A DNA stretch of 36,031 nucleotides from an uncultured Gammaproteobacteria bacterium (GCA_964582845.1 CAZOTW010000003.1:4790-40820); one strand, 5' to 3'; positions 2,667-27,694 are shown, counted from the first letter of the stretch. A program made the numbers and translations. The notes: generated by a model from the letters alone, not told the origin.

Positions 2667-3104
2667 ATGCCGACCGTCAATCAATTAGTCCGTCATGGAC
2701 GACATAGCAAATCAAAAAAGATTAAAGCAACGGCTCTACGGAAGTTTTTTAACGCCAAAGACCGTTTGACCAAACAGCTTCCGTCTCCGTTTAAGCGGGG
2801 AGTGGTGACGCTGGTTAAAACGATGACGCCGAAAAAACCGAACTCGGCACTCCGAAAGGTTGCGCGTGTCCGTTTGTCCAACAAGCAGGAAGTCACCGCG
2901 TATATTCCTGGAATTGGACATGAGCTTACGGAGCATGCTATTGTGCTTGTTCGCGGAGGGCGAGTACCGGATTTACCCGGTGTCAAATATCACATTGTCC
3001 GCGGAAAATTTGACTCTTCGGGAGTTGCGAATCGGAAACAAGGGCGGAGCCGCTATGGCGCAAAAGCCGGTAGTACCGGTCCGGCGACGGCTGCCGCCAG
3101 TTAA
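2667..3104 (+). CDS. rpsL: 30S ribosomal protein S12
   Basis: MPTVNQLVR.., [35 protein letters not shown]. Has an internal N-proximal insertion and an Ala-rich C-terminal tail. Confidence 0.97.
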
Positions 3105-3118
3105 TCAATTATTAATGT

Positions 3119-3595
3119 ATGTCACGTTCAGGACGCGTTATCAAATCTTTACATGCATCTGATCCCGTTTATGGGAACAGGTTGCTTGGCCGATTTATCA
3201 ATCGGGTGATGCATAGCGGGAAAAAGCGTACGGCAGAGCGGCAAGTGTATGGTGCACTGGATGTCATAAAAGAAAAAGGAGAGGATCCTATCAAAGTTTT
3301 TGAAACCGCAATAGCCAATGCCGGACCTAAAATGGAAGTAAAGGCGCGTCGGGTAGGTGGCGCTTCGTATCAGGTCCCGACGGAAGTACGCGGTGACCGG
3401 CGAGTCGCTCTTGCCATGCGGTGGATTGTCGGGTTTGCGAACAAACGGTCCAATAAAGAATACAAATCATTTGCAGAAAAATTAGCGGTGGAACTTATGG
3501 AAGCCGCCAAAGGCCAAGGGGACGCCATCAAAAAACGTGATACGGTGCACCGCATGGCAGAGGCCAACAGGGCGTTTGCACACTTCAAATGGTAA
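3119..3595 (+). CDS. rpsG: 30S ribosomal protein S7
   Basis: Follows rpsL. Contains [15 protein letters not shown] and a C-terminal ..RAFAHFKW. Confidence 0.97.
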
Positions 3596-6194: not shown

Positions 6195-6890
6195 TTAGTT
6201 TCCGCTATTGAGGATGACGGTGGACCCTTTGAAATTGGTTATGGTAAATGGCGTTTCGCCGTGAAACAGCTTAGATCCCTGTGCGTTGACGGTTACATAC
6301 GTGGTAAGGTTTGGCGATGTTGTGATGGGTTGAAAATTCATATCGATGAGCTGAAACGTCTGTGATGGTGCCGTGATACCCGATGATGGTGTAATCGCAA
6401 GTCCCACGTTTATCGTGCCCGTGAGATTCGCCTGACTCGTTGAGCTAAAGGTAAGTGCCGGTGCAAGCGCAGGATTTTTGCTGGTGCTGATGGAAACTAA
6501 TTTCATTTTTGTTTTATCGAAATCAATTCGTATTTGTCCTTGGTCGACAGACGATTCTGCGTTTACCCATAATTGAAGAAGCACCATGGGTTTTGTGCGG
6601 GATTCCGATGGTACGATCATGATATTGGCGCGAGAGTTGCCTGCTTTTGTCACAATATTCTGTGGTTTTTGGATTTGTTGGGCGATGACAAAACCGACAA
6701 CGAGCATCATGACAAACGAGAGTTTCCAGACAAATTGCGTGCGTACGCCACTATCTATTAATCGTTTATACCATGGGGTCGGGACGATGACCGTTTCCGG
6801 TATTTGTTCAAGTATGACTGTGGGAGGTTGAGAGCCTGGTTCTGTATGTTGTGAATCCGTTGACGATGGTGGTTGGTTATGATCGTCCAT
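6195..6890 (-). CDS. hypothetical membrane-anchored protein with a beta-rich extracytoplasmic domain
   Basis: Pro/Ser/Thr-rich N-terminus, a single TM helix (FVWKLSFVMMLVVGFVIAQQI), then a Ser/Thr/Asn-rich domain. No family recognised. Confidence 0.55.
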   Translation of the reverse strand: MDDHNQPPSSTDSQHTEPGSQPPTVILEQIPETVIVPTPWYKRLIDSGVRTQFVWKLSFVMMLVVGFVIAQQIQKPQNIVTKAGNSRANIMIVPSESRTKPMVLLQLWVNAESSVDQGQIRIDFDKTKMKLVSISTSKNPALAPALTFSSTSQANLTGTINVGLAITPSSGITAPSQTFQLIDMNFQPITTSPNLTTYVTVNAQGSKLFHGETPFTITNFKGSTVILNSGN

Positions 6891-7036
6891 AGGTGGCTAC
6901 CTCTATAATATTACTTGTAAATTACTATAGCAACATGTGTCTCCTTTGTCTCAAGAGTGGAAACGGACTATTGAAGCGGATGATATAGTAGTCCACTCAT
7001 TGACTTTTATATCGTAAATATGTTGAACTAGAGAAC

Positions 7037-7119
7037 TGTTAGGGGTGTCCCGAGCTTGTCGAGGGACTGAGATTATACCCTTTAAACCTGATCTGGATTA
7101 TACCAGCGGAGGGAAACAA
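7037..7119 (+). promoter_or_regulatory. TPP (THI-box) riboswitch aptamer
   Basis: UGUUAGGGGUGUCCCGAGCUUGUCGAGGGACUGAGAUUAUACCCUUUAAACCUGAUCUGGAUUAUACCAGCGGAGGGAAACAA. Matches block for block the E. coli thiM aptamer as I recall it (GGGGUGC..CUGAGA..ACCC..ACCUGAUCUGGAUAAUGCCAGCGUAGGGAA). The GGAGGG Shine-Dalgarno sequence lies inside the aptamer and the 3' strand of P1 abuts the ATG. Confidence 0.9.
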
Positions 7120-7635
7120 ATGAGCCAAGAACGCTCCCACATTTTAGAGCCTCGGATTACCAGCCCGTTTCGTAATGAATACAATTTGTATGAGCAAGGT
7201 GTTGCTCTTCTTATTTTTAATAGAGCAGGCAAAATACTATTAGTCAAAGAGACACACGACGACCCTAGGTACGGAAGGACAGTTGGTCAATGGAATATCG
7301 TTACGGAAACAAGGCAATTTGGCGAACGCGTAAAGCCGAACATACAACGAGCAATTGATGAAGAACTCGGAATGGATTACTCACTGTTTATGATTATTCC
7401 CCGAAGCTATCGGGAAACGAACGGGATATACAATAGAGAGATGGGGTACCGGTATAAATATCGATGTGTATGTTTTGTATACGAAGGGGATCCCGATAGA
7501 CCCGCACATGAGGTATTTCACTGTAATTCCGGCGAAATTGCCGGGTATCAGTGGGTTGCGCCGGATGCGTTAGATCTTTATAATATCGAACCTGGCGCGC
7601 GAAAGGTCATTGAATATTATAAAAGTTTTGGTTGA
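7120..7635 (+). CDS. Nudix-family hydrolase-like protein (degenerate Nudix box)
   Basis: Start ATG at 7120 sits 6 nt after GGAGGG. GVALLIFNRAGKILLVKE...WNIVTETRQFGE-RVKPNIQ-RAIDEELGM fits E-x7-R(E/A)UxEExGU. The track start at 7045 reads through the riboswitch. Confidence 0.65.
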   Translation: MSQERSHILEPRITSPFRNEYNLYEQGVALLIFNRAGKILLVKETHDDPRYGRTVGQWNIVTETRQFGERVKPNIQRAIDEELGMDYSLFMIIPRSYRETNGIYNREMGYRYKYRCVCFVYEGDPDRPAHEVFHCNSGEIAGYQWVAPDALDLYNIEPGARKVIEYYKSFG

Positions 7636-7699: not shown

Positions 7700-8344
7700 T
7701 TACTCAGAAATAGGAGCGGGTTCCTTGGCGATTATGGTAAAACTTCCCTCAAGGGAGTCTACGTCACCTATACTACTTTCCATAGAATGAATCGTAGCGG
7801 ATGTTGGATTCTCGATAGACATCATACCGGTGGCTATTCTATAGGCGCTGGGATTTACCAATAAATTATTCAGTCTACGTAAATCTTCGTCGCGTACTTC
7901 TGCTCTCATAAACGGATATGTATACGTGTCGCCAATCTGTTCCCGATGACCGTTTATGGGGCCTTGTCCCTCGACCAATCTTAATAAGTCTACCGTTCTC
8001 TCCCCATGTCGAAGCAGTCCCGCTTCTCTTCGGGCGACGTCCCATCCTTCGCCGTCATGAGGGTCTAATATCTTGGTGGCATAGGTGCTAGAGATCGGGA
8101 GGTTGGTCTGTGTTTTGACTCGTGTTACTTCAATACCATTCTGCTTCGCAATATCGAGGATTTGATTACATAACCTCGTTATATCAGCGCGTAATTCATC
8201 TCGCCCCTCTGGTGTTCTTATGTCCCGGGCTGCACCACAGTTTGTCGCTACGATCCAAAACCGGCCGTATTTTGCTTCTAATGTGGCTGGATCAAGACCT
8301 TTGTCTTTTGGTTCAAAAAATTTTGGCGCTTCTAGTTGTGACAT
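7700..8344 (-). CDS. hypothetical protein
   Basis: 214-aa ORF with ordinary composition, convergent with the Nudix gene. No motif recognised. Confidence 0.55.
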   Translation of the reverse strand: MSQLEAPKFFEPKDKGLDPATLEAKYGRFWIVATNCGAARDIRTPEGRDELRADITRLCNQILDIAKQNGIEVTRVKTQTNLPISSTYATKILDPHDGEGWDVARREAGLLRHGERTVDLLRLVEGQGPINGHREQIGDTYTYPFMRAEVRDEDLRRLNNLLVNPSAYRIATGMMSIENPTSATIHSMESSIGDVDSLEGSFTIIAKEPAPISE

Positions 8345-9573: not shown

Positions 9574-10434
9574 ATGAACCTTATTATTCCTCTTCTCCTC
9601 TCCTTTGTTCCCATGATTATGTGGGGGACGATGGATGTTTTGGGCGGACTCCTTGCGCGAAAAGCACCTGCAACAATTGGTTTTTTTACCACACAATTGA
9701 TGGGTCTCCTTATAACACTTACTTTTTTGCCCTTCATTCCGAAACCAACAGTCATAACCATAATTCCTTTATTTCTCCTCGGCATACTTCCCGTATTTTC
9801 ATGGCTTCTGTATTTTAAAGCCGCTCAAGTCACGGATATTTCCATCGTCGGCCCCATATCCCGGGTTGATTTTGTTCTGACAAGTATATTGGGTATGGTA
9901 TTTCTGCAGGAAGCAGCGACCCCGGCGAAATTTATCAGCATCGGTTTGGTATTTGTGGGAAGTGGTCTATTGTCTCTGGACTGGTCAAAGCTTACTCATA
10001 AAAAAATTCCGAACTTAACGGTCGGTGCTGTCCTTGCCTTTTTCTGCGCGGTTGCTGTCGGCTTGCAGCTTTTCTTGATGGCGCCGGAATCCCGTATAAA
10101 CGGATGGTATTACACGTCATTATTTTTACGTATCGCCGCCACCGCGTATGCAGGACTATGCGTCGTTCTGTTTAAGCAAACGAAAACGTTATTTCAATCG
10201 TATTTACCTTGGAAATTGATAGCTGGCGTGGCATTGGTGGACGTTATCGGATTGAGTGTTTATAACTTCACTGTCATGCGGTATCCGGTATCGTATGTGT
10301 CCGTTATCGTGTCCTGCGCGTCCTTCGTTACCATCCTTATCGCCCGCTTATGGTTAAAGGAAAAACTCCGTTCGCTCCAATACGTCGGAATTTTTCTGAT
10401 GATATTAGGCATTATCAGTTTACAAATCTCCTGA
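9574..10434 (+). CDS. EamA/DMT-family transporter
   Basis: About 10 predicted TM helices in two similar halves, with an N-terminal ..MIMWGTMDV.. typical of EamA. TGaGATAAT ends 6 nt before the ATG. Confidence 0.8.
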   Translation: MNLIIPLLLSFVPMIMWGTMDVLGGLLARKAPATIGFFTTQLMGLLITLTFLPFIPKPTVITIIPLFLLGILPVFSWLLYFKAAQVTDISIVGPISRVDFVLTSILGMVFLQEAATPAKFISIGLVFVGSGLLSLDWSKLTHKKIPNLTVGAVLAFFCAVAVGLQLFLMAPESRINGWYYTSLFLRIAATAYAGLCVVLFKQTKTLFQSYLPWKLIAGVALVDVIGLSVYNFTVMRYPVSYVSVIVSCASFVTILIARLWLKEKLRSLQYVGIFLMILGIISLQIS

Positions 10435-10713: not shown

Positions 10714-11229
10714 GTGCTATCTGAATTTTATTCTTCTATGACTTCGCTACCTGATTATAAGGATAGTTTTGCAGAGGCGTACTTATTTGCTATTTCTGCT
10801 GCAGCAGGGCTACCGATTGAGAGATCGACTCGTAGAACAGATAACCTTGGAATTGATCTAACTTTGAGTAAAAAGAACGATTCGGTATCCCCAGGGTCTC
10901 AAATTAACATACAATTAAAAGGAGTTGCAGAAAATAGCGCCTCAATGTTTAAAGAGGATGAAAGATCGATAAGTTATAATTTCCATAATCCTTGTAATCC
11001 AATAGGGGCACATTATCTAGTTGTAGTGCGATTGCCGAACGATGGAACACCTGAAGATTGGTTAACCTTGACTGAAAAAGAGTTGATAATAAGAAAGTGT
11101 GCATTCTATACAAAAATTGTGCCAAAGATGAAATCAGGTTTTGTTAAAATACCAAAAACTCAGCTATTGACTCATAATAATCTCCCGACACTGTTTCCTA
11201 GTGCTATAGACTTGGTAAATAATTTGTAA
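10714..11229 (+). CDS. DUF4365-like PD-(D/E)xK (restriction-endonuclease fold) protein
   Basis: E21 (SFAEAYLF), D43/D48 (RTDNLGIDLTL) and Q67-L-K69 (INIQLKG) occur in the order and spacing of the PD-(D/E)xK core. GTG start at 10714, alternative ATG at 10738. AT-rich. Confidence 0.6.
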   Translation: MLSEFYSSMTSLPDYKDSFAEAYLFAISAAAGLPIERSTRRTDNLGIDLTLSKKNDSVSPGSQINIQLKGVAENSASMFKEDERSISYNFHNPCNPIGAHYLVVVRLPNDGTPEDWLTLTEKELIIRKCAFYTKIVPKMKSGFVKIPKTQLLTHNNLPTLFPSAIDLVNNL

Positions 11230-11232
11230 AAT

Positions 11233-12390
11233 ATGAATATAATTTCAATAAGTAGTTTTCAAGATGTATTCCAGAGAATAGGTTTGATTAAAAGCAAATC
11301 TAAATCAGGTAACTATGAAATTTGGAAATCAAGGGAACGCGACGATCTTTTTACAGTACTACCTTTAGCAAAAAGTAGTCATGACTATGAGTACTATCAG
11401 GAAAAAAACGTTGAGTTTATTAATTATTTACTGGGGTTAGTGTACAACGAAGAAAACAAAGAGGAGATATTGAGTCAATTGAATGGATACAATTATAAAC
11501 TAATAAATAGAATACAAACAAAAGAACCATATTCACAAGAAACAGTCCCTTATAGGTTAGCAGATGTACTAATTAACAAAAATGTTAACGCGTTTCTATA
11601 TTTCTTTAATCAGAAAACAAAAGGAAAGATTCCTCTGGGTATCAAAAATATAAGATTGAACCACACGCAGCATGGTAGCTTTGTTATACCAGTGTCGATA
11701 GAATTAGTTGGTCAAGAAACTTTTCCGACAATCCCTTCGCAAATAAATAAAACCCTAAGAGACTATTTGGATGTTGTAGATCTTATTTCTGGTTTAGATA
11801 TGTCCAACGAAGAAAAATTTGCGTCTTCAGTTTTGGAGAACGACTTGGATTCGACATTAGTAAGGAATTTTATTGATAGTACTTCGAGTGTAGCTTTTTA
11901 TAAAAAAGAATATAGCGATTTTATTCAAAACGTTTCAATATCAGGAAGAAGTAACCCAATACTTGATTATCAACTTGAGAGAAAATATAAGAATTTTCCA
12001 GAAGTGAGTTTGGCCCAATTACAACCAGCTTCGGTGGAGTTTTTTGAATATCTTGAACGAAAAGAAACAGAGCGGGATGAGCAAGCAATATATGCAGTTA
12101 ATACAACAATCGAAGTTATTGTTGACGCTTTAGATAGGGGTGGCAAAGTAAAATTTAGTGTAGTGGCGGTAGGCGCACAAAGGATTGATAAGCCTTTTAA
12201 GGCGTCTATAGATGAACAGCCGCAAGTAAGGCTAAATGAGTTTGCAAGTGCTTTTATTACTGGTGAAGTGCTTGAGCTTAATGGAGATATTCGAAAGCCA
12301 AAACATAAGTTGGGGAAAATATTGGTTCATGAACTTAAACGCAAGAATCCTAAATTGACGCTTCTTGATGATATTACAGAAAAAAAGTAG
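11233..12390 (+). CDS. hypothetical protein, orphan partner of the nuclease-like gene
   Basis: 385-aa ORF starting 3 nt after the upstream stop. No P-loop, methyltransferase, helicase or HTH motif recognised. Confidence 0.6.
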   Translation: MNIISISSFQDVFQRIGLIKSKSKSGNYEIWKSRERDDLFTVLPLAKSSHDYEYYQEKNVEFINYLLGLVYNEENKEEILSQLNGYNYKLINRIQTKEPYSQETVPYRLADVLINKNVNAFLYFFNQKTKGKIPLGIKNIRLNHTQHGSFVIPVSIELVGQETFPTIPSQINKTLRDYLDVVDLISGLDMSNEEKFASSVLENDLDSTLVRNFIDSTSSVAFYKKEYSDFIQNVSISGRSNPILDYQLERKYKNFPEVSLAQLQPASVEFFEYLERKETERDEQAIYAVNTTIEVIVDALDRGGKVKFSVVAVGAQRIDKPFKASIDEQPQVRLNEFASAFITGEVLELNGDIRKPKHKLGKILVHELKRKNPKLTLLDDITEKK

Positions 12391-12481
12391 TGTTTGTTAG
12401 ATTGCTAAACAATCTCGTTATTTTCTCCACATTTCTCTTCAACGCCTCTTTCGTTTTGAGAAACCCGAGGGAGTGAAAAGC

Positions 12482-12553
12482 AGTAAATAGTTCGATTATT
12501 CGAATAATCGAACTATTTGGAATTTTTTCCGTGCACCTCGGAGGTGCGTAAAC
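12482..12553 (+). repeat. island repeat R2 (34-bp perfect palindrome + GC hairpin)
   Basis: AAATAGTTCGATTATTC|GAATAATCGAACTATTT (12485-12518), then GGAATTTTTTCC, then GTGCACCTCgGAGGTGCGTAAAC. Flanked by identical 13-mers AAACCCGAGGGAG at 12461-12473 and 12554-12566. Confidence 0.9.
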
Positions 12554-12604
12554 AAACCCGAGGGAGCGCGGGATTTCTTTTTGGAGCGTGCTACAGCCTT
12601 CCTG

Positions 12605-12613
12605 TGATATAAT
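12605..12613 (+). promoter_or_regulatory. extended -10 promoter element TGATATAAT (cassette 2, leaderless geometry)
   Basis: Perfect TGnTATAAT ending 7 nt before the ATG at 12621. Confidence 0.5.
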
Positions 12614-12620
12614 TAAGTTA

Positions 12621-13124
12621 ATGCCAGAAATAAACCAAGTTAACGACGAAAATACTCAACCATCTTCCTTACCTGAGGCTTTTATTCCCGAGGTTGATTT
12701 AGTAGGAGTATCAGTTGACCCCAAGAAAGCCGCAGAATTTGTAGAAACACCTGGTATCAAACAAGCGCTCGCACAAGCTGGAACATTTCTTGGAGGTGCA
12801 GGAGTGACAATGGCTGGATTATCTGACTTTATCAACGTTACTATGAACCAACCCACAGGTCCTGAACGAACTACTGCAATGATAACAACTTTTTTAATAA
12901 TGAATATAGGTATAGTTATGCTTTGTTCATCGAAAAATGTAACTGAAATGTTTCAACATGGTTTACTGCGAATCCAATCTATTGCTTCAAGAGATAAAGA
13001 TATTGTTACAGGAGAAGGCGAACTTACTGCAAAGGGGCGACTGGCTCTTTCCCCTGATAAAGAGCCGGAATTATCTTTAGAGCAGTTATTAGCACGATCA
13101 AACGGGAATCAACAACAAAAATGA
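12621..13124 (+). CDS. hypothetical 2-TM membrane protein
   Basis: I chose the ATG at 12621 because it has -10 geometry; the track start at 12588 is a GTG. Hydrophobic segments AGTFLGGAGVTMAGLSDFI and AMITTFLIMNIGIVMLCSS, with a polar Gln-rich C-terminus. Confidence 0.55.
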   Translation: MPEINQVNDENTQPSSLPEAFIPEVDLVGVSVDPKKAAEFVETPGIKQALAQAGTFLGGAGVTMAGLSDFINVTMNQPTGPERTTAMITTFLIMNIGIVMLCSSKNVTEMFQHGLLRIQSIASRDKDIVTGEGELTAKGRLALSPDKEPELSLEQLLARSNGNQQQK

Positions 13125-13483
13125 CCGTAGAAGAACAATATATTATTTTAGAGAATATTCTTTATGAGTTAGGGTATGATGATGAAAAAATACTTGCGTT
13201 TCGACGGACTTTTTTTGAACGTCTCATTTTAAGATTAGGAAAAACCACGTTAATGATATTTCCTGTTACTCAGCAAGCTGCTTTTTTTGATTTATTAAAA
13301 AAAAGCGAAACAATTCCAGAAGATATTAATGCTTTCTTTAAAAGAAATAATATTTCTCAAACAACAGTTTCTTTATTAGACAAAGAATTTACCATGCTAC
13401 TTGAAGAAACAAAACAAAATATCTTAAAAGTTGTTACAGAATCTCAAAAGAAAATCATTGAAGAGAAATTTAATTCAGCTTAA
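13121..13483 (+). CDS. hypothetical small helical protein
   Basis: 120 aa. Start overlaps the upstream stop (ATGA), implying translational coupling. No family recognised. Confidence 0.55.
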   Translation: MTVEEQYIILENILYELGYDDEKILAFRRTFFERLILRLGKTTLMIFPVTQQAAFFDLLKKSETIPEDINAFFKRNNISQTTVSLLDKEFTMLLEETKQNILKVVTESQKKIIEEKFNSA

Positions 13484-14086: not shown

Positions 14087-15070
14087 ATGAGTAACGATCT
14101 TGCTATACTTCTTGCCCGAACATATCTTCAAATCCCCTTTGATCAGTTTCTCAAAGAAGTGAAAACTCAATATCCGCGACTTGGGGAGATAACGCAGTTT
14201 CAACCGATCACGGAAGGATACGAAGATGCCAATATATTGCTCGTCACAGAGACAGGAACGTACGTCATTAAAATATTCTCGAAAGACAGGAGTGTAGAAA
14301 ATGTTAGAAGTTACATCCACATCCTTGAGGAAGCGCAAAAAATTGGCGTACCGGTAACCCGGCTTGTTCCCGGGACAAAAGGTAGCATAAGTTTCGCGGC
14401 GGAAAATACCAAGACCCCGTATTGCATTGCGGAGTTTTTTGACGGGAATGATTTTCAGGAAAAATCTCCGACGATGGATGATATGGTTCGCGTCGCTTCC
14501 TATCTTGCGAAACTGAATACGCTTCGTTTTCCGATGACGGAATATTATGACTCATGGGGAAATAAAAATCTTGCAGTTGAGTACGAAAAAAATAAGGAGA
14601 GTCTCACACGCGAGCAGGCAGAATTGATTGCGCCGGTTGTTGAGAGCTTCAAGAAGCTGGATTTTTCCAAATTCAGCACATCAATTATTCATGGTGACAT
14701 GCAGCGAAAACACGTGCTGAAAAACGCTAAAGGCGAATACTGCATTTTGGATTTCGGGTGTGCCGCGAACGGTCCGAAGGTCATCGAATTATCGACGCAT
14801 CTTGCGTGGTTTTGTTTAGGGGAAGATACGTGGAGTGCGCGGAAAGATATTATGAATAAGGTAGTTGAGGAGTATACATCGGTGCATCACCTGACGAAAT
14901 ACGAACTTGATGCGCTACCCATACTCATGCGTGCTTGCTATGCAGCATATTATCTGAAAACCTGTGTATTGATTGGTGACGGAAACACGAGTCAGGAAAC
15001 GGCCCAATGGAATAAAACGTCTCTTCAAATGCTTCGTTTAGCCGCGCTTGCGGGAAGAGGGGAATTCTAG
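14087..15070 (+). CDS. APH/choline-kinase/homoserine-kinase-II family phosphotransferase
   Basis: IIHGDMQRKHVL catalytic loop followed by ILDFGCA (DFG-type metal-binding motif). The usual Asn at D+5 is His here. Confidence 0.8.
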   Translation: MSNDLAILLARTYLQIPFDQFLKEVKTQYPRLGEITQFQPITEGYEDANILLVTETGTYVIKIFSKDRSVENVRSYIHILEEAQKIGVPVTRLVPGTKGSISFAAENTKTPYCIAEFFDGNDFQEKSPTMDDMVRVASYLAKLNTLRFPMTEYYDSWGNKNLAVEYEKNKESLTREQAELIAPVVESFKKLDFSKFSTSIIHGDMQRKHVLKNAKGEYCILDFGCAANGPKVIELSTHLAWFCLGEDTWSARKDIMNKVVEEYTSVHHLTKYELDALPILMRACYAAYYLKTCVLIGDGNTSQETAQWNKTSLQMLRLAALAGRGEF

Positions 15071-15125: not shown

Positions 15126-17228
15126 ATGGCAGCACCAAGCACAATTACGACAGAACAACGCGACGTACCTTTGGATAAAGTACGCAATATCGGCGTTATC
15201 GCCCACATCGACGCGGGTAAAACCACGACAACCGAGCGGATCCTCTATTACACCGGCAGGACGTACAAAATCGGCGATATTGACGAGGGCACCACACAAA
15301 TGGACTGGATGGAACAGGAGAGAGAACGGGGAATTACGATCGTTTCTGCTGCTACCACGACATTCTGGAAAGGATACAGATTTAATATCATTGACACTCC
15401 GGGGCACGTAGACTTTACCGCAGAAGTAGAACGCTCTCTTCGGGTTCTCGACGGAGGCATTACGGTACTGGACGCGGAAGAAGGCGTGCAGTCACAGTCA
15501 GAAACAGTCTGGCACCAGGCAGACAAATACAAAGTTCCGCGTCTTTGCTTTATCAACAAAATGGACAAAATCGGAGCGGATTACCGTGCGACGATTAAAT
15601 CAATTGTAGACCGGCTTGGGGCAAATCCAGCGATTATGGTCGTGCCAATCGGGAGAGAAAGTACATTTAAAGGAGTTATTGATCTATTGACGCGAAAAGC
15701 TTATGTATGGAATACCGATGATCTCGGGGCTAAAGCCGATGAAGTAGAAATTCCTGCTGACCTTAAGGATGAAGTAGAGAAAAGCAGACACGAACTGGTT
15801 GAGAAAATTTCCGAGACCGATGACGTCCTCCTCGAAAAATATCTGGACGGCAAAGAGCCGACTCTGGAAGAATTAAAATCTGCACTCCGAAAGGCGGTTA
15901 TTGCCTACAAACTCGTTCCGATTTACGCAGGATCCAGTCTCCGCAATAAAGGCGTACAGCCGCTTCTTGACGCGGTGGTCGACTATTTACCCTCGCCGCT
16001 TGACCTTCCGCCGGTTGGTGGAACCCATCCTAAAACTGGAGAAAAGGTAGCCTACAAACGCGAAAAAGATGCACCGCTTGCCGGGTTGGCATTTAAAATT
16101 CAAATTGACCCCCATGTCGGAAAACTCACCTACGTCCGTATCTATTCCGGAAAGCTTGAATCTGGTTCCTATGCCTACAATTCGACGAAAGACCTAAAAG
16201 AGCGTGTGGGACGATTGCTTCTGATGCACGCGAACCAACGGGAAGAAATTAAAGAAGCTTATGCGGGAGAAATCGTTGCGGTCGTGGGGTTTAAAGACAC
16301 CATTACCGGAGACACGATTTGCGATGCCGAAAAGCCGATTGTGTTGGAGAAAATTTCGTTCCCCGAGCCGGTCATCTCCCTGGCTATCGAGCCGAAAACG
16401 AAAAACGACTTGGAACGCATGGGGTATGCACTGCAACGATTATCCGAAGAAGACCCGACATTTAAAATTAAAAGTAACCTCGAGACCAACCAGACGATTA
16501 TTTGGGGGATGGGCGAGTTGCACTTGGAAATTTTGGTTGATCGCATGAAACGGGAATTTAAAGTGGATGCCAATGTTGGTGCGCCGCAGGTCGCCTACAA
16601 AGAAACCATTAAAATAGAGGCGGAAGGCGAAGGGAAATATATCCGTCAATCCGGTGGCCGGGGACAATACGGTCATTGTTTCATCCGCATCGAGCCCAAA
16701 GGCAGAGGAGAGGGATTTGAGTTTGAAGATGCCATAAAAGGCGGTGCTATTCCCCGCGAGTTTATCGCTCCTATCGAAAAAGGCGTCAAAGAAGCTATGG
16801 AAAATGGCGTTGTGGCGGGATACCCAATGGTTGACATGAAAGTGACGCTGTATGACGGAACGTACCATGAGGTCGATAGCTCTGAAGTCGCATTCAAAAT
16901 CGCCGGTAGCATGGCACTTCAACATGCAGCTAAAGCCGCCCAACCCACCATCATAGAGCCGATCATGAAAGTGGAAGTCACGACCCCCGATGAATTTATG
17001 GGAGATATTATCGGAGATTTGGGCGCAAAACGGTCACAGATATTAGGTACCCAGAAAAGGGGTCACGTGACCGTCATCCTTGCGATGGTACCGCTTGCGG
17101 AACTTTCGGGCTATGCCACGGCGCTTCGAAGTATGTCCAAAGGGAGAGCGACGTATTATATGGAGCCCAGTCACTACGAGGAAGTGCCGCGTAATATTCA
17201 GGAGAAGATCATTGCGAAAACTGTATAA
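15126..17228 (+). CDS. fusA: elongation factor G
   Basis: [27 protein letters not shown] and NKMDK GTPase motifs, 700 aa. Confidence 0.98.
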
Positions 17229-26454: not shown

Positions 26455-26784
26455 ATGATAGACAAAAGACTTTTGCGACTAAAAAGAAAATTGCGTATCC
26501 GATCAAAAATTACCGGAACTCAAAAGCGGCCGCGTATGGCGGTGTATCGTTCTAATAAAGCATTTATGATACAGCTTATCGATGACGGGAAACAGGAGAC
26601 GCTATTGTCTCTGTCGATGAGGGGGAAAACCATAGAAAAAGCAAAAGCGTTGGGTATTGAGGTTGCCAAAAAAGCGGTGAAAAAGGGTATTACCAACGTC
26701 GTTTTTGATCGTGGCGGATATCGATATCACGGTTCAATTAAAGCGGTAGCGGATGGTGCGCGTGAAGGAGGATTAGCACTATGA
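26455..26784 (+). CDS. rplR: 50S ribosomal protein L18
   Basis: ..PRMAVYRSNK...QLIDD.. ..VVFDRGGYRYHG..KA.ADGAREGGL. Confidence 0.95.
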   Translation: MIDKRLLRLKRKLRIRSKITGTQKRPRMAVYRSNKAFMIQLIDDGKQETLLSLSMRGKTIEKAKALGIEVAKKAVKKGITNVVFDRGGYRYHGSIKAVADGAREGGLAL

Positions 26785-27263
26785 GGTATCAACAAAAGAC
26801 AGAACGGGTTCCCAGTGAGTTTGAAGAAAAAATTGTTCAGGTAAATCGTGTGTCAAAAAAAACCAAGGGAGGCAATAAAATCGGGTTTTCCGTCCTTGCT
26901 GTGGTTGGCGACCGGAAGGGTCGCGTCGGAGTGGGGCTGGGAGGCGCTCCGGATGTATCCTCATCGGTACGAAAAGCGGTTACGTATGCAAAGAAACATT
27001 TGTTTACGGTTCCCATGAAGGGGAAAACTATTCCGCATGAAGTTCGTGTGAAATTGGGAGCAGCACGCGTCCTGTTAAAACCCGCTCCTCCCGGTACGGG
27101 AGTTATTGCCGGTGGGGCAGTTCGCGCTGTCATGGAAGCGGCGGGAGTACGGGATGTCGTGTCGAAGATTTTGGGAAGTAAAAATCAGGCGTCCAACGTC
27201 TATGCGACCATGGAAGCATTGAAACATTTAAGACTTCGTCCGAAATCAGGAGTAAATGTATGA
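26781..27263 (+). CDS. rpsE: 30S ribosomal protein S5
   Basis: ..VNRVSKKTKGGNKIGFSVLAVVGD..G.VG.G.G.A..V.. Confidence 0.96.
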   Translation: MRYQQKTERVPSEFEEKIVQVNRVSKKTKGGNKIGFSVLAVVGDRKGRVGVGLGGAPDVSSSVRKAVTYAKKHLFTVPMKGKTIPHEVRVKLGAARVLLKPAPPGTGVIAGGAVRAVMEAAGVRDVVSKILGSKNQASNVYATMEALKHLRLRPKSGVNV

Positions 27264-27694
27264 ATCTCTCGACGTTATCACCAATTGTTGCGCGGTCAAA
27301 AAAACGGATAGGCCGAGGGCATGGATCCGGAAAAGTAAAAACCGCAGGACGGGGGACGAAAGGGCAGAATGCGCGTGACAGCATGCCATTGGGTTTTGAA
27401 GGAGGACAGCTTTCTATTCTCAAGCGGTTGCCGCTCCTTCGCGGTAAAGGGAGAAATCACAGTCAAAAGAGAAAAGCGTATCCCATCAGCGTTTCAGTTT
27501 TATCCGCGCTTCCGTCAGGGACCGTAGTGACATTGGCAACACTTCGAAAATATCATATGATTGATGAGGATGTGACGCGGGTAAAAGTATTGGGACACGG
27601 AGCACTGTCAACAAAGCTCACTGTAGCAGTGCCATGTTCAAAAAGCGCCCTTCGGGTTATTGAAAAAGCCGGTGGTATACTACAAAAAACTTAG
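27260..27694 (+). CDS. rplO: 50S ribosomal protein L15
   Basis: ..KKRIGRGHGSGKVKTAGRGTKGQ.AR. Start overlaps the rpsE stop (ATGA), leaving no room for rpmD. Confidence 0.95.
   Translation: MNLSTLSPIVARSKKRIGRGHGSGKVKTAGRGTKGQNARDSMPLGFEGGQLSILKRLPLLRGKGRNHSQKRKAYPISVSVLSALPSGTVVTLATLRKYHMIDEDVTRVKVLGHGALSTKLTVAVPCSKSALRVIEKAGGILQKT

Follow-up and report, generated by a model that had tools for sequence, protein, structure and literature searches.

The known targets of thiamin pyrophosphate (TPP) riboswitches serve thiamin supply, uptake or salvage, and among the Nudix hydrolases NudJ acts on hydroxymethylpyrimidine pyrophosphate (HMP-PP) and thiamin diphosphate (ThDP). Here we describe a TPP riboswitch that directly precedes a gene for a Nudix-fold protein in a stretch of DNA of 36,031 nucleotides from an uncultured Gammaproteobacteria bacterium (GCA_964582845.1, CAZOTW010000003.1:4790-40820), together with the family of riboswitch-gene pairs to which it belongs and an evaluation of the role that the enzyme may have. 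The whole stretch is called the window, and all window positions are counted from its first letter.

Nudix enzymes that hydrolyse oxy- and oxothiamin diphosphate (oxy-/oxo-ThDP) were described by Goyer et al. (Biochem J 2013 454:533; quoted in PMC5627462 and PMC9544542); an earlier note on this DNA, made from the sequence alone, had cited that work, and the citation is correct. The family comprises the Nudix domain of S. pombe Tnr3, yeast YJR142W and Arabidopsis NUDT20/24, all oxy-/oxo-ThDP diphosphatases. YzgD, a Nudix/HAD protein encoded in the Paenibacillus thiaminase I operon, is thought to be under the control of a TPP riboswitch (PMC5627462), and the ykkC subtype 2c (nucleoside diphosphate) riboswitches control NUDIX/HAD hydrolases (PMC7266159). 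Aptamers that contain the Shine-Dalgarno (SD) sequence, which is sequestered directly by the ligand, are reported for the preQ1-I type III, SAM-II and SAM/SAH riboswitches in PMC10622847 and PMC10516623.

Throughout the family, TPP riboswitch and Nudix gene go together. Upstream DNA is readable at 15 loci, to which all locus counts in this report refer (window, L001, L002, L003, L004, L006, L007, L008, L009, L010, L012, L013, L015, L016 and L017). In 15 of 15 a match to Rfam family RF00059 (TPP riboswitch) above the gathering score, with 56-80 bits, lies directly before the Nudix gene on the same strand; the homologues encoded at these loci are only 30-72% identical to the window protein. Homologue P0005 adds a sixteenth case, as its N-terminal extension is translated aptamer. 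Gene callers run the Nudix open reading frame (ORF) upstream through the aptamer in the window (7045-7119), in P0002 and in P0005; the peptide '...GTEI.PFKPD..T.GGKQ' ahead of the true Met stems from the riboswitch. A further locus, L005, was considered as an exception without riboswitch and was rejected as uninformative, because a scaffold gap (run of N) starts exactly at the Nudix gene. The genes on either side vary between loci and include thymidine kinase, tRNAs, glycosyltransferases, type IV secretion system (T4SS) pilins, a response regulator, RibD and 5'-nucleotidase; what is conserved is therefore the riboswitch plus the Nudix gene as a monocistronic unit.

Among 5.8 billion clusters, 12 family proteins were found with a single sequence and 30 with a profile, and an exhaustive hidden Markov model (HMM) search of 1.84 billion representatives gave 15 matches with E<1e-30 and 34 with E<1e-10, with weaker matches fading into generic Nudix proteins. 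Members are annotated as 'hypothetical' or 'NUDIX hydrolase', and the precomputed Pfam assignments of 30 of 30 members consist of PF00293 or nothing, with no extra domain. This rare Nudix family is an obligate, and often the sole, target of the riboswitch; it is new, as is the platform-free design described below. A full-text search, with most subscription journals outside its reach and an earlier mention thus possible, turned up neither a stand-alone Nudix gene controlled by a TPP riboswitch nor a platform-free design of this riboswitch, and no TPP riboswitch from Patescibacteria. Outer relatives (P0055, P0062, P0064 and P0074) share the box variant E...E...R[AG]..EELG; some outer relatives are 460-510 aa long, with a 310-aa N-terminal part that has no Pfam or NCBIfam match, and no informative Pfam or NCBIfam annotation was obtained for the outer relatives.

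In the window, RF00059 is the sole Rfam match within the 36 kb. It was found by cmscan at 7031-7131 on the + strand at full length, covering model positions 1-105, with a score of 73.6 bits against a gathering score of 54.3 and an E-value of 7.3e-13. Judged by its sequence, the RNA at 7031-7131 is a genuine and canonical TPP riboswitch, an ordinary member of the known class for which ligand binding is predicted. The parts of the riboswitch and the gene are as follows.

7037-7118, + strand: TPP aptamer, from the 5' strand of P1 through the 3' strand of P1 (RF00059)
7037-7040, + strand: 5' strand of P1, UGUU, with 7115-7118 as its partner (Rfam alignment)
7067-7072, + strand: CUGAGA, the pyrimidine-sensor motif in J3/2 (Rfam consensus matched; invariant in 15 of 15 aptamers)
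7087-7112, + strand: P4-P5 pyrophosphate-sensor arm, ACCUGAUCUGGAUUAUACCAGCGGAGG (Rfam alignment; ACCUG, GCG and AGG columns invariant)
7108-7113, + strand: Shine-Dalgarno sequence GGAGGG, overlapping the 3' strand of P4 (read from the sequence; 6 nt before the ATG)
7115-7118, + strand: 3' strand of P1, AACA (sequence and Rfam alignment; one base before the ATG at 7120)
7120-7635, + strand: monocistronic Nudix-fold gene, 171 aa, with the box E63...E69...R77-A78..E81-E82 (Pfam, AlphaFold2, Foldseek and family alignments)

The riboswitch measures about 85 nt from P1 to the AUG. P1 consists of 4 bp only, the fifth pair of the model being a C-A mismatch; P2 and P3 are present and the optional P3a hairpin is absent. 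The ligand-contact core ACCUG...GCG.AGGGA of the P4/P5 arm occupies 7086-7114, and the GAGG of the SD sequence GGAGGG (7108-7113) doubles as the 3' strand of P4. Across the 15 related aptamers the cores that contact TPP (CUGAGA; ACCUG...GCG.AGGGA) are invariant. In the alignment of these aptamers 88.2% of the cells in helices P1-P5 are paired, compared with 41-61% in slid controls, and 10 of 22 helix pairs show compensatory changes on both sides; the observed covariation was equalled by none of 500 shuffles. The weakest helix is P1 with 72% paired. A possible alternative pairing between the aptamer and the coding sequence (CUGAGAU with AUUUUAG; CGAGG with CCUCG) was rejected as chance, since shuffled sequence folds as well as the leader (z = 0.66) and the conserved ILEPR motif is encoded in this region. 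No convincing sigma-70 promoter was found upstream of the aptamer, where the site counts equal the shuffled expectation. The DNA sequencing runs with the window locus are sediment and soil metagenomes, and no RNA runs containing it were found.

At 13 of the 15 loci the ATG follows the conserved GCG(G/A)AGG(G/A)A block by 2-7 nt. With the ATG this close to the aptamer block, the SD sequence is part of P4, the start codon abuts or enters P1, and there is therefore no room for a separate expression platform. From this anatomy we infer that the window element would be a translational OFF switch without a separate expression platform. TPP binding would lock P1, P4 and the three-way junction and deny access to the 30S subunit; when TPP falls, the weak 4-bp P1 and the junction would open and the Nudix mRNA would be translated. 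The remaining two loci, L002 and L007, carry a stem-loop with a U-run, a terminator, after the aptamer instead of the compact design (ACUGUUCC-UUUAU-GGAACAGU-U9 in L002 and AACUGUUUCU-UUGCU-GGAAGCAGUU-U7 in L007). The 5' arm of these terminator stems is able to pair instead with the 3' half of the aptamer (AAGGGAACA in L002), and in L002 the alternative states differ little in energy (-15.6 and -15.1 kcal/mol; z = -3.95 relative to shuffles). A TPP-locked aptamer would in these two loci free the terminator from the antiterminator and switch the gene off. These two loci support the direction of the switch independently of the compact design. Both designs read as OFF switches, and the Nudix enzyme would therefore be made when TPP is scarce. 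We hold this regulatory part of the explanation with high confidence.

The ORF at 7120-7635 encodes 171 aa plus a stop codon. A longer ORF starting with GTG (7045-7635) was rejected as a gene-calling artefact that translates the aptamer, because the conservation among homologues begins at the ATG at 7120. PF00293 (NUDIX) is the sole Pfam family at E<=1 in the protein, with 42.8 bits against a cut-off of 21.1. The AlphaFold2 model computed from the family alignment has a mean pLDDT (predicted local distance difference test) of 90.7 and a pTM (predicted template modelling score) of 0.87. Foldseek against the PDB returned 431 matches at E<=0.001, and all 50 listed are Nudix proteins, with query-normalized TM-scores (TMq) of 0.49-0.62; RppH, NudI/YfaO, GDP-mannose mannosyl hydrolase, Ap4A hydrolases and YmfB are among the matches. 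On the predicted model the Nudix fold is certain, and no specific subfamily stands out. Among solved structures, NudI (YfaO; PDB 3n77/3oga/6dt3) alone is matched at sequence level, with 22-24% identity and with 31 bits for the single sequence and 36 bits for the family profile. Profile searches of PDB and NCBIfam return only names of the NudI type, and the NCBIfam equivalog model for NudI, NF012016, scores 32.1 bits against its cut-off of 95. NudJ/YmfB gave no NCBIfam or PDB sequence match and only a generic likeness at fold level (3dku, 19% identity).

The box of the window protein reads E63-T-R-Q-F-G-E69-x7-R77-A78-I-D-E81-E82-L-G84-M and departs from the canonical Nudix box GX5EX7REUXEEXGU in that the first Gly is replaced by Glu and RE by RA. 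These deviations occur family-wide: the Glu at position 1 (E63), aligned with the box Gly of NudI, lies within an invariant T-E-T, RA or RG stands at the RE site, and E69, E81, E82 and G84 are retained almost without exception. The variant is conserved in all family members and is therefore a family signature, not decay; it suggests a relocated catalytic or metal-binding Glu in a rearranged active site. Additional conserved motifs of the family are GQWN, SYRETN, MGYxYKYRC and IExGA, and Arg/Lys residues and the aromatics W58, Y97, Y104 and Y110 are conserved as well. Within the Nudix ORF, at 7192-7207 and 72 nt past the ATG, a hairpin resembling a terminator is followed by a T-rich tail. The conserved QGVALLIFN motif is encoded there, and the hairpin is probably due to chance (1 found, 0.6 expected).

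Most of what the earlier note had read from this DNA holds. The TPP aptamer is real, with its coordinates and description correct, as the Rfam comparison (73.6 against 54.3 bits) confirms; the compact design, with SD sequence and start codon in or against the aptamer, is seen in the window and kept in 13 of 15 loci; and the proposed Nudix fold is borne out by PF00293 (42.8 bits), the AlphaFold2 model (pLDDT 90.7) and the exclusively Nudix matches listed by Foldseek. It had also stated that no thiamin synthesis or transport gene adjoins the Nudix gene, and indeed there is none, the next gene downstream being convergent (7700-8344, - strand). The protein had been given as 172 aa, which has to be corrected to 171 aa plus the stop codon. 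The box had been called degenerate: RA in place of RE and the lack of Gly at the first position were rightly seen, whereas degeneracy alone does not describe a box with a conserved Glu at that position as a family trait.

The explanation that we favour, with confidence a little better than even, combines a TPP OFF switch, its conserved pairing with the gene, and a Nudix enzyme that is needed at low TPP and hydrolyses a thiamin-derived pyrophosphate compound. The occurrence of the TPP riboswitch in 15 of 15 loci, although protein identity spans 30-72% and the neighbourhoods change, speaks for a direct functional link, and the logic of the regulon makes a thiamin-derived pyrophosphate compound the most likely substrate. 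The putative active site keeps E69, E81, E82, the conserved Arg/Lys residues and the family-specific Glu at box position 1, with the glutamate of RE gone. The leading candidate, put forward tentatively and akin to the damage control raised in the earlier note, is the clean-up of non-cofactor thiamin diphosphates, i.e. oxy-/oxo-ThDP or similar analogues, which would compete hardest for TPP enzymes at low TPP, especially in a vitamer scavenger. Several points weigh against the explanation. With a side activity on ThDP, a clean-up enzyme would be a burden exactly at low TPP. NudI, the closest relative that is characterised, has nucleotides rather than thiamin compounds as substrates, judged by the names of the matches. 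The absent glutamate of RE could mean altered chemistry or a loss of catalysis. No thiamin genes were found as neighbours in any of the 15 loci, so the riboswitch is the sole link of the family to thiamin. On the side of the RNA, the P4-P5 hairpin may form without ligand too, which may limit the release of the SD sequence in the apo state, and the thermodynamic fold of the window leader is unremarkable relative to shuffled sequence (z = 0.66), as often happens with aptamers whose folding relies on tertiary contacts.

The OFF logic, which is that of the known supply genes controlled by TPP riboswitches, would also suit a salvage enzyme that replenishes low ThDP by cleaving adenosine thiamin triphosphate (AThTP, to ThDP and AMP), adenosine thiamin diphosphate (AThDP) or thiamin triphosphate (ThTP) from the host, the environment or the cell itself. 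AThTP is a textbook substrate of the type 'nucleoside diphosphate linked to X', and the conserved aromatics (W58, Y97, Y104, Y110) together with the Arg/Lys residues fit a stacked base plus polyphosphate. AThTP hydrolase is listed only as 'putative', without an assigned gene, in a 2021 review (PMC8615392); the hydrolase activities reported there are membrane-bound, whereas the window protein looks soluble. No Nudix enzyme is known for AThTP hydrolysis, AThTP is usually a minor vitamer, and a supporting gene context is absent. We regard such a salvage role, with release of ThDP or thiamin monophosphate (ThMP), as doubtful although second in rank after clean-up, and as more doubtful still its bolder form, in which the family is the missing AThTP/AThDP/ThTP hydrolase, a dedicated enzyme switched on by way of an aptamer-only TPP riboswitch, by which ultra-small thiamin-auxotrophic bacteria turn host thiamin nucleotides into ThDP. 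A role outside thiamin metabolism seems to us unlikely to a similar degree: the protein would be a general house-cleaning or regulatory Nudix enzyme for nucleotides or sugars linked to nucleoside diphosphates (NDP-sugars), perhaps NudI-like, with TPP as a nutritional read-out. The absence of thiamin genes near the 15 loci, the nadE/nadD-like genes near the Nudix gene in L012 and L015, the cyclic phosphodiesterase-like gene that follows it in L007, and the position of the NudI nucleoside triphosphatases as the only characterised relatives by sequence (36 bits with the family profile) would all accord with it. This role would leave the 15 of 15 association with TPP riboswitches across divergent proteins and neighbourhoods to be accounted for; no TPP riboswitch is known to us as a general state sensor, and the NudI match itself falls well under the NCBIfam cut-off (32 against 95 bits).

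Processing of a precursor in thiamin synthesis or moiety salvage, either from adenylated thiazole (ADT) to hydroxyethylthiazole phosphate (HET-P) or from HMP-PP to hydroxymethylpyrimidine phosphate (HMP-P) as by NudJ, appears improbable. The Nudix step after the THI4-type thiazole synthase (ADT to HET-P) is still uncharacterised (PMC9544542), YmfB/NudJ is found among the fold matches (3dku, rank 30, TM 0.57), and OFF logic fits a biosynthetic role, but such a role needs ThiE, ThiD or THI4 as partners, and none of them was seen in about 170 kb of DNA flanking the related loci. Several loci are moreover Patescibacteria-like, the sampled Saccharibacteria are without thiamin synthesis (PMC10409787), and no specific similarity to NudJ was detected. 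We consider it very improbable that the protein lacks catalysis and uses its Nudix fold to bind or buffer a nucleotide or thiamin compound; the canonical box is indeed broken at two positions (Gly1 to Glu, RE to RA/RG), yet E69, E81, E82 and G84 are kept almost always and the replacement E63 is itself conserved, which points to a rearranged and not a dead site. The lowest probability of all is given to the destruction of surplus TPP, one reading of the TPP homeostasis that the earlier note had raised. Some Nudix enzymes do hydrolyse ThDP, among them the Goyer enzymes and NudJ; removal of an excess requires an ON switch, however, and both types of expression platform would repress with TPP bound (13 and 2 loci), so the OFF logic contradicts it.

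Two neighbouring genes were considered as conserved partners of the riboswitch-Nudix unit; an EamA transporter was rejected, and a kinase is only noted. EamA transporter genes occur near the window Nudix gene (9574-10434), beside its homologue on the P0004 contig, and in L002; the one in L002 encodes a protein without relation to the window's EamA, and no further locus has one. A kinase of the APH family is present only in the window and in L015 among the 15 loci. The window kinase (14087-15070) is orthologous to L015 1048-1863 (36% identity, E 6e-62), which lies directly upstream of the riboswitch-Nudix unit; in NCBIfam it has weak homoserine-kinase-like matches only and no thiamin kinase match. 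Thiamin kinase belongs to the same superfamily. In L007, the most divergent locus, a cyclic phosphodiesterase-like (2H phosphoesterase) gene at 6485-7003 starts 38 nt after the stop codon of the Nudix gene, and riboswitch control may extend to it by co-transcription. Genes for NAD synthase and nicotinate-nucleotide adenylyltransferase-like proteins (nadE/nadD-like) lie 1-5 kb from the Nudix gene at L012 9188-10577 and L015 5263-7200. L010, on a contig of 1.09 Mb, also contains a cobalamin riboswitch at 13356-13471 on the - strand (36 bits, gathering score 31.5), upstream of a 661-aa ORF without Pfam match (11288-13273, - strand).

One Nudix homologue is annotated as 'Patescibacteria group bacterium' from a metagenome-assembled genome (MAG), and several loci carry genes typical of Patescibacteria genomes, e.g. 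T4SS pilins and sortase. In the window (26781-27694) the gene for ribosomal protein S5 overlaps that for L15 by 4 nt with no L30 gene between them, which is consistent with an origin from Patescibacteria/candidate phyla radiation (CPR); a reduced genome, presupposed in the earlier note, is plausible for the window organism, given this arrangement and the homologue in a Patescibacteria MAG. The sampled Saccharibacteria that lack thiamin synthesis nevertheless have TPP-dependent enzymes (PMC10409787). Other family members are found in MAGs labelled Gamma- or Deltaproteobacteria, one of them beside ribD, so that the family may extend beyond reduced genomes. The str operon of the window is split, with rpsL and rpsG (2667-3595) 11.5 kb from fusA (15126-17228). 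The intervening block holds two flavodoxins, a HhH-GPD glycosylase, a CvpA+CAP protein, the riboswitch-Nudix unit, the EamA transporter, a DUF4365 protein and the APH-family kinase. The split recurs in the related P0004 contig, where the contents of the block differ in part. At 10714-12390 the DUF4365 gene is followed after 4 nt by a 385-aa ORF without Pfam match, a possible two-gene module.

Comparative-genomics logic of the kind that uncovered ThiT, PnuT, CytX and recently OarX makes any gene family with an unfailing TPP riboswitch upstream a strong candidate for a step still missing from thiamin metabolism. The Nudix family sits in genomes of apparent thiamin scavengers, where the acquisition and protection of TPP are almost uncharted. 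Identification of the substrate would add either a second, independently evolved Nudix enzyme for thiamin damage or the first gene for the hydrolysis of adenylated or triphosphorylated thiamin. Should salvage of AThTP, AThDP or ThTP be true, the family would provide the first gene for a long-orphan reaction and a route of cofactor harvesting specific to epibiotic bacteria. The RNA is a clean natural TPP riboswitch without expression platform and would make a useful compact regulator, including for Patescibacteria, for which inducible systems are lacking (PMC11665869). For annotation practice, gene callers that read through the aptamer produce false N-terminal extensions.

Compared with the described systems, the window aptamer is of the same class as the leaders of E. 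coli thiM and thiC (THI element), with the CUGAGA and ACCUGAUCUGG...CCAGCG.AGGGA cores intact, and like these it would be an OFF switch ahead of the regulated gene. It differs from thiM, which reportedly uses a distinct anti-SD helix, in that a separate expression platform is absent in 13 of 15 Nudix loci, where P4 has the SD sequence as its 3' strand and the AUG directly adjoins the 4-bp P1. It differs from the classical TPP riboswitches in its regulated gene, a Nudix hydrolase and not a gene for synthesis, transport or recognised salvage. With NudI the window protein has in common the GQW...G-E-R...EELG region, whereas NudI has a canonical GX5E...RE box where the window protein has E63 and R77-A78. 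We know of no link of NudI to thiamin or to a riboswitch.

The Goyer family resembles the present one as Nudix enzymes tied to thiamin by comparative genomics, with a plausible role in organisms that do not make thiamin. Its members are, as we assume, longer proteins with an extra N-terminal domain (DUF4743) before the Nudix domain. No such domain occurs in the window protein, which has 171 aa and PF00293 only, and its box variant is different; the two are set apart here by description, not by direct sequence comparison. The link to thiamin is here a riboswitch, not gene fusion or clustering. Membership in the Goyer family, towards which the earlier note had leaned, is thus not supported for a single-domain protein of 171 aa with no extra domain in any family member and NudI as the sole detectable characterised relative.

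Among riboswitch-controlled Nudix proteins, YzgD is a distal passenger fused to HAD, with the riboswitch before thiM-thiD-thiE, whereas the window Nudix gene is the sole and immediate target. The ykkC subtype 2c riboswitches provide a precedent for a riboswitch with a Nudix hydrolase as main target; they differ in aptamer and ligand and are predicted ON switches that induce removal of the ligand, whereas the window element would be an OFF switch that senses an end-product cofactor. The preQ1-I type III, SAM-II and SAM/SAH riboswitches achieve their economy with small pseudoknot or hairpin aptamers, and the window element does so with the three-way-junction aptamer of the TPP class.

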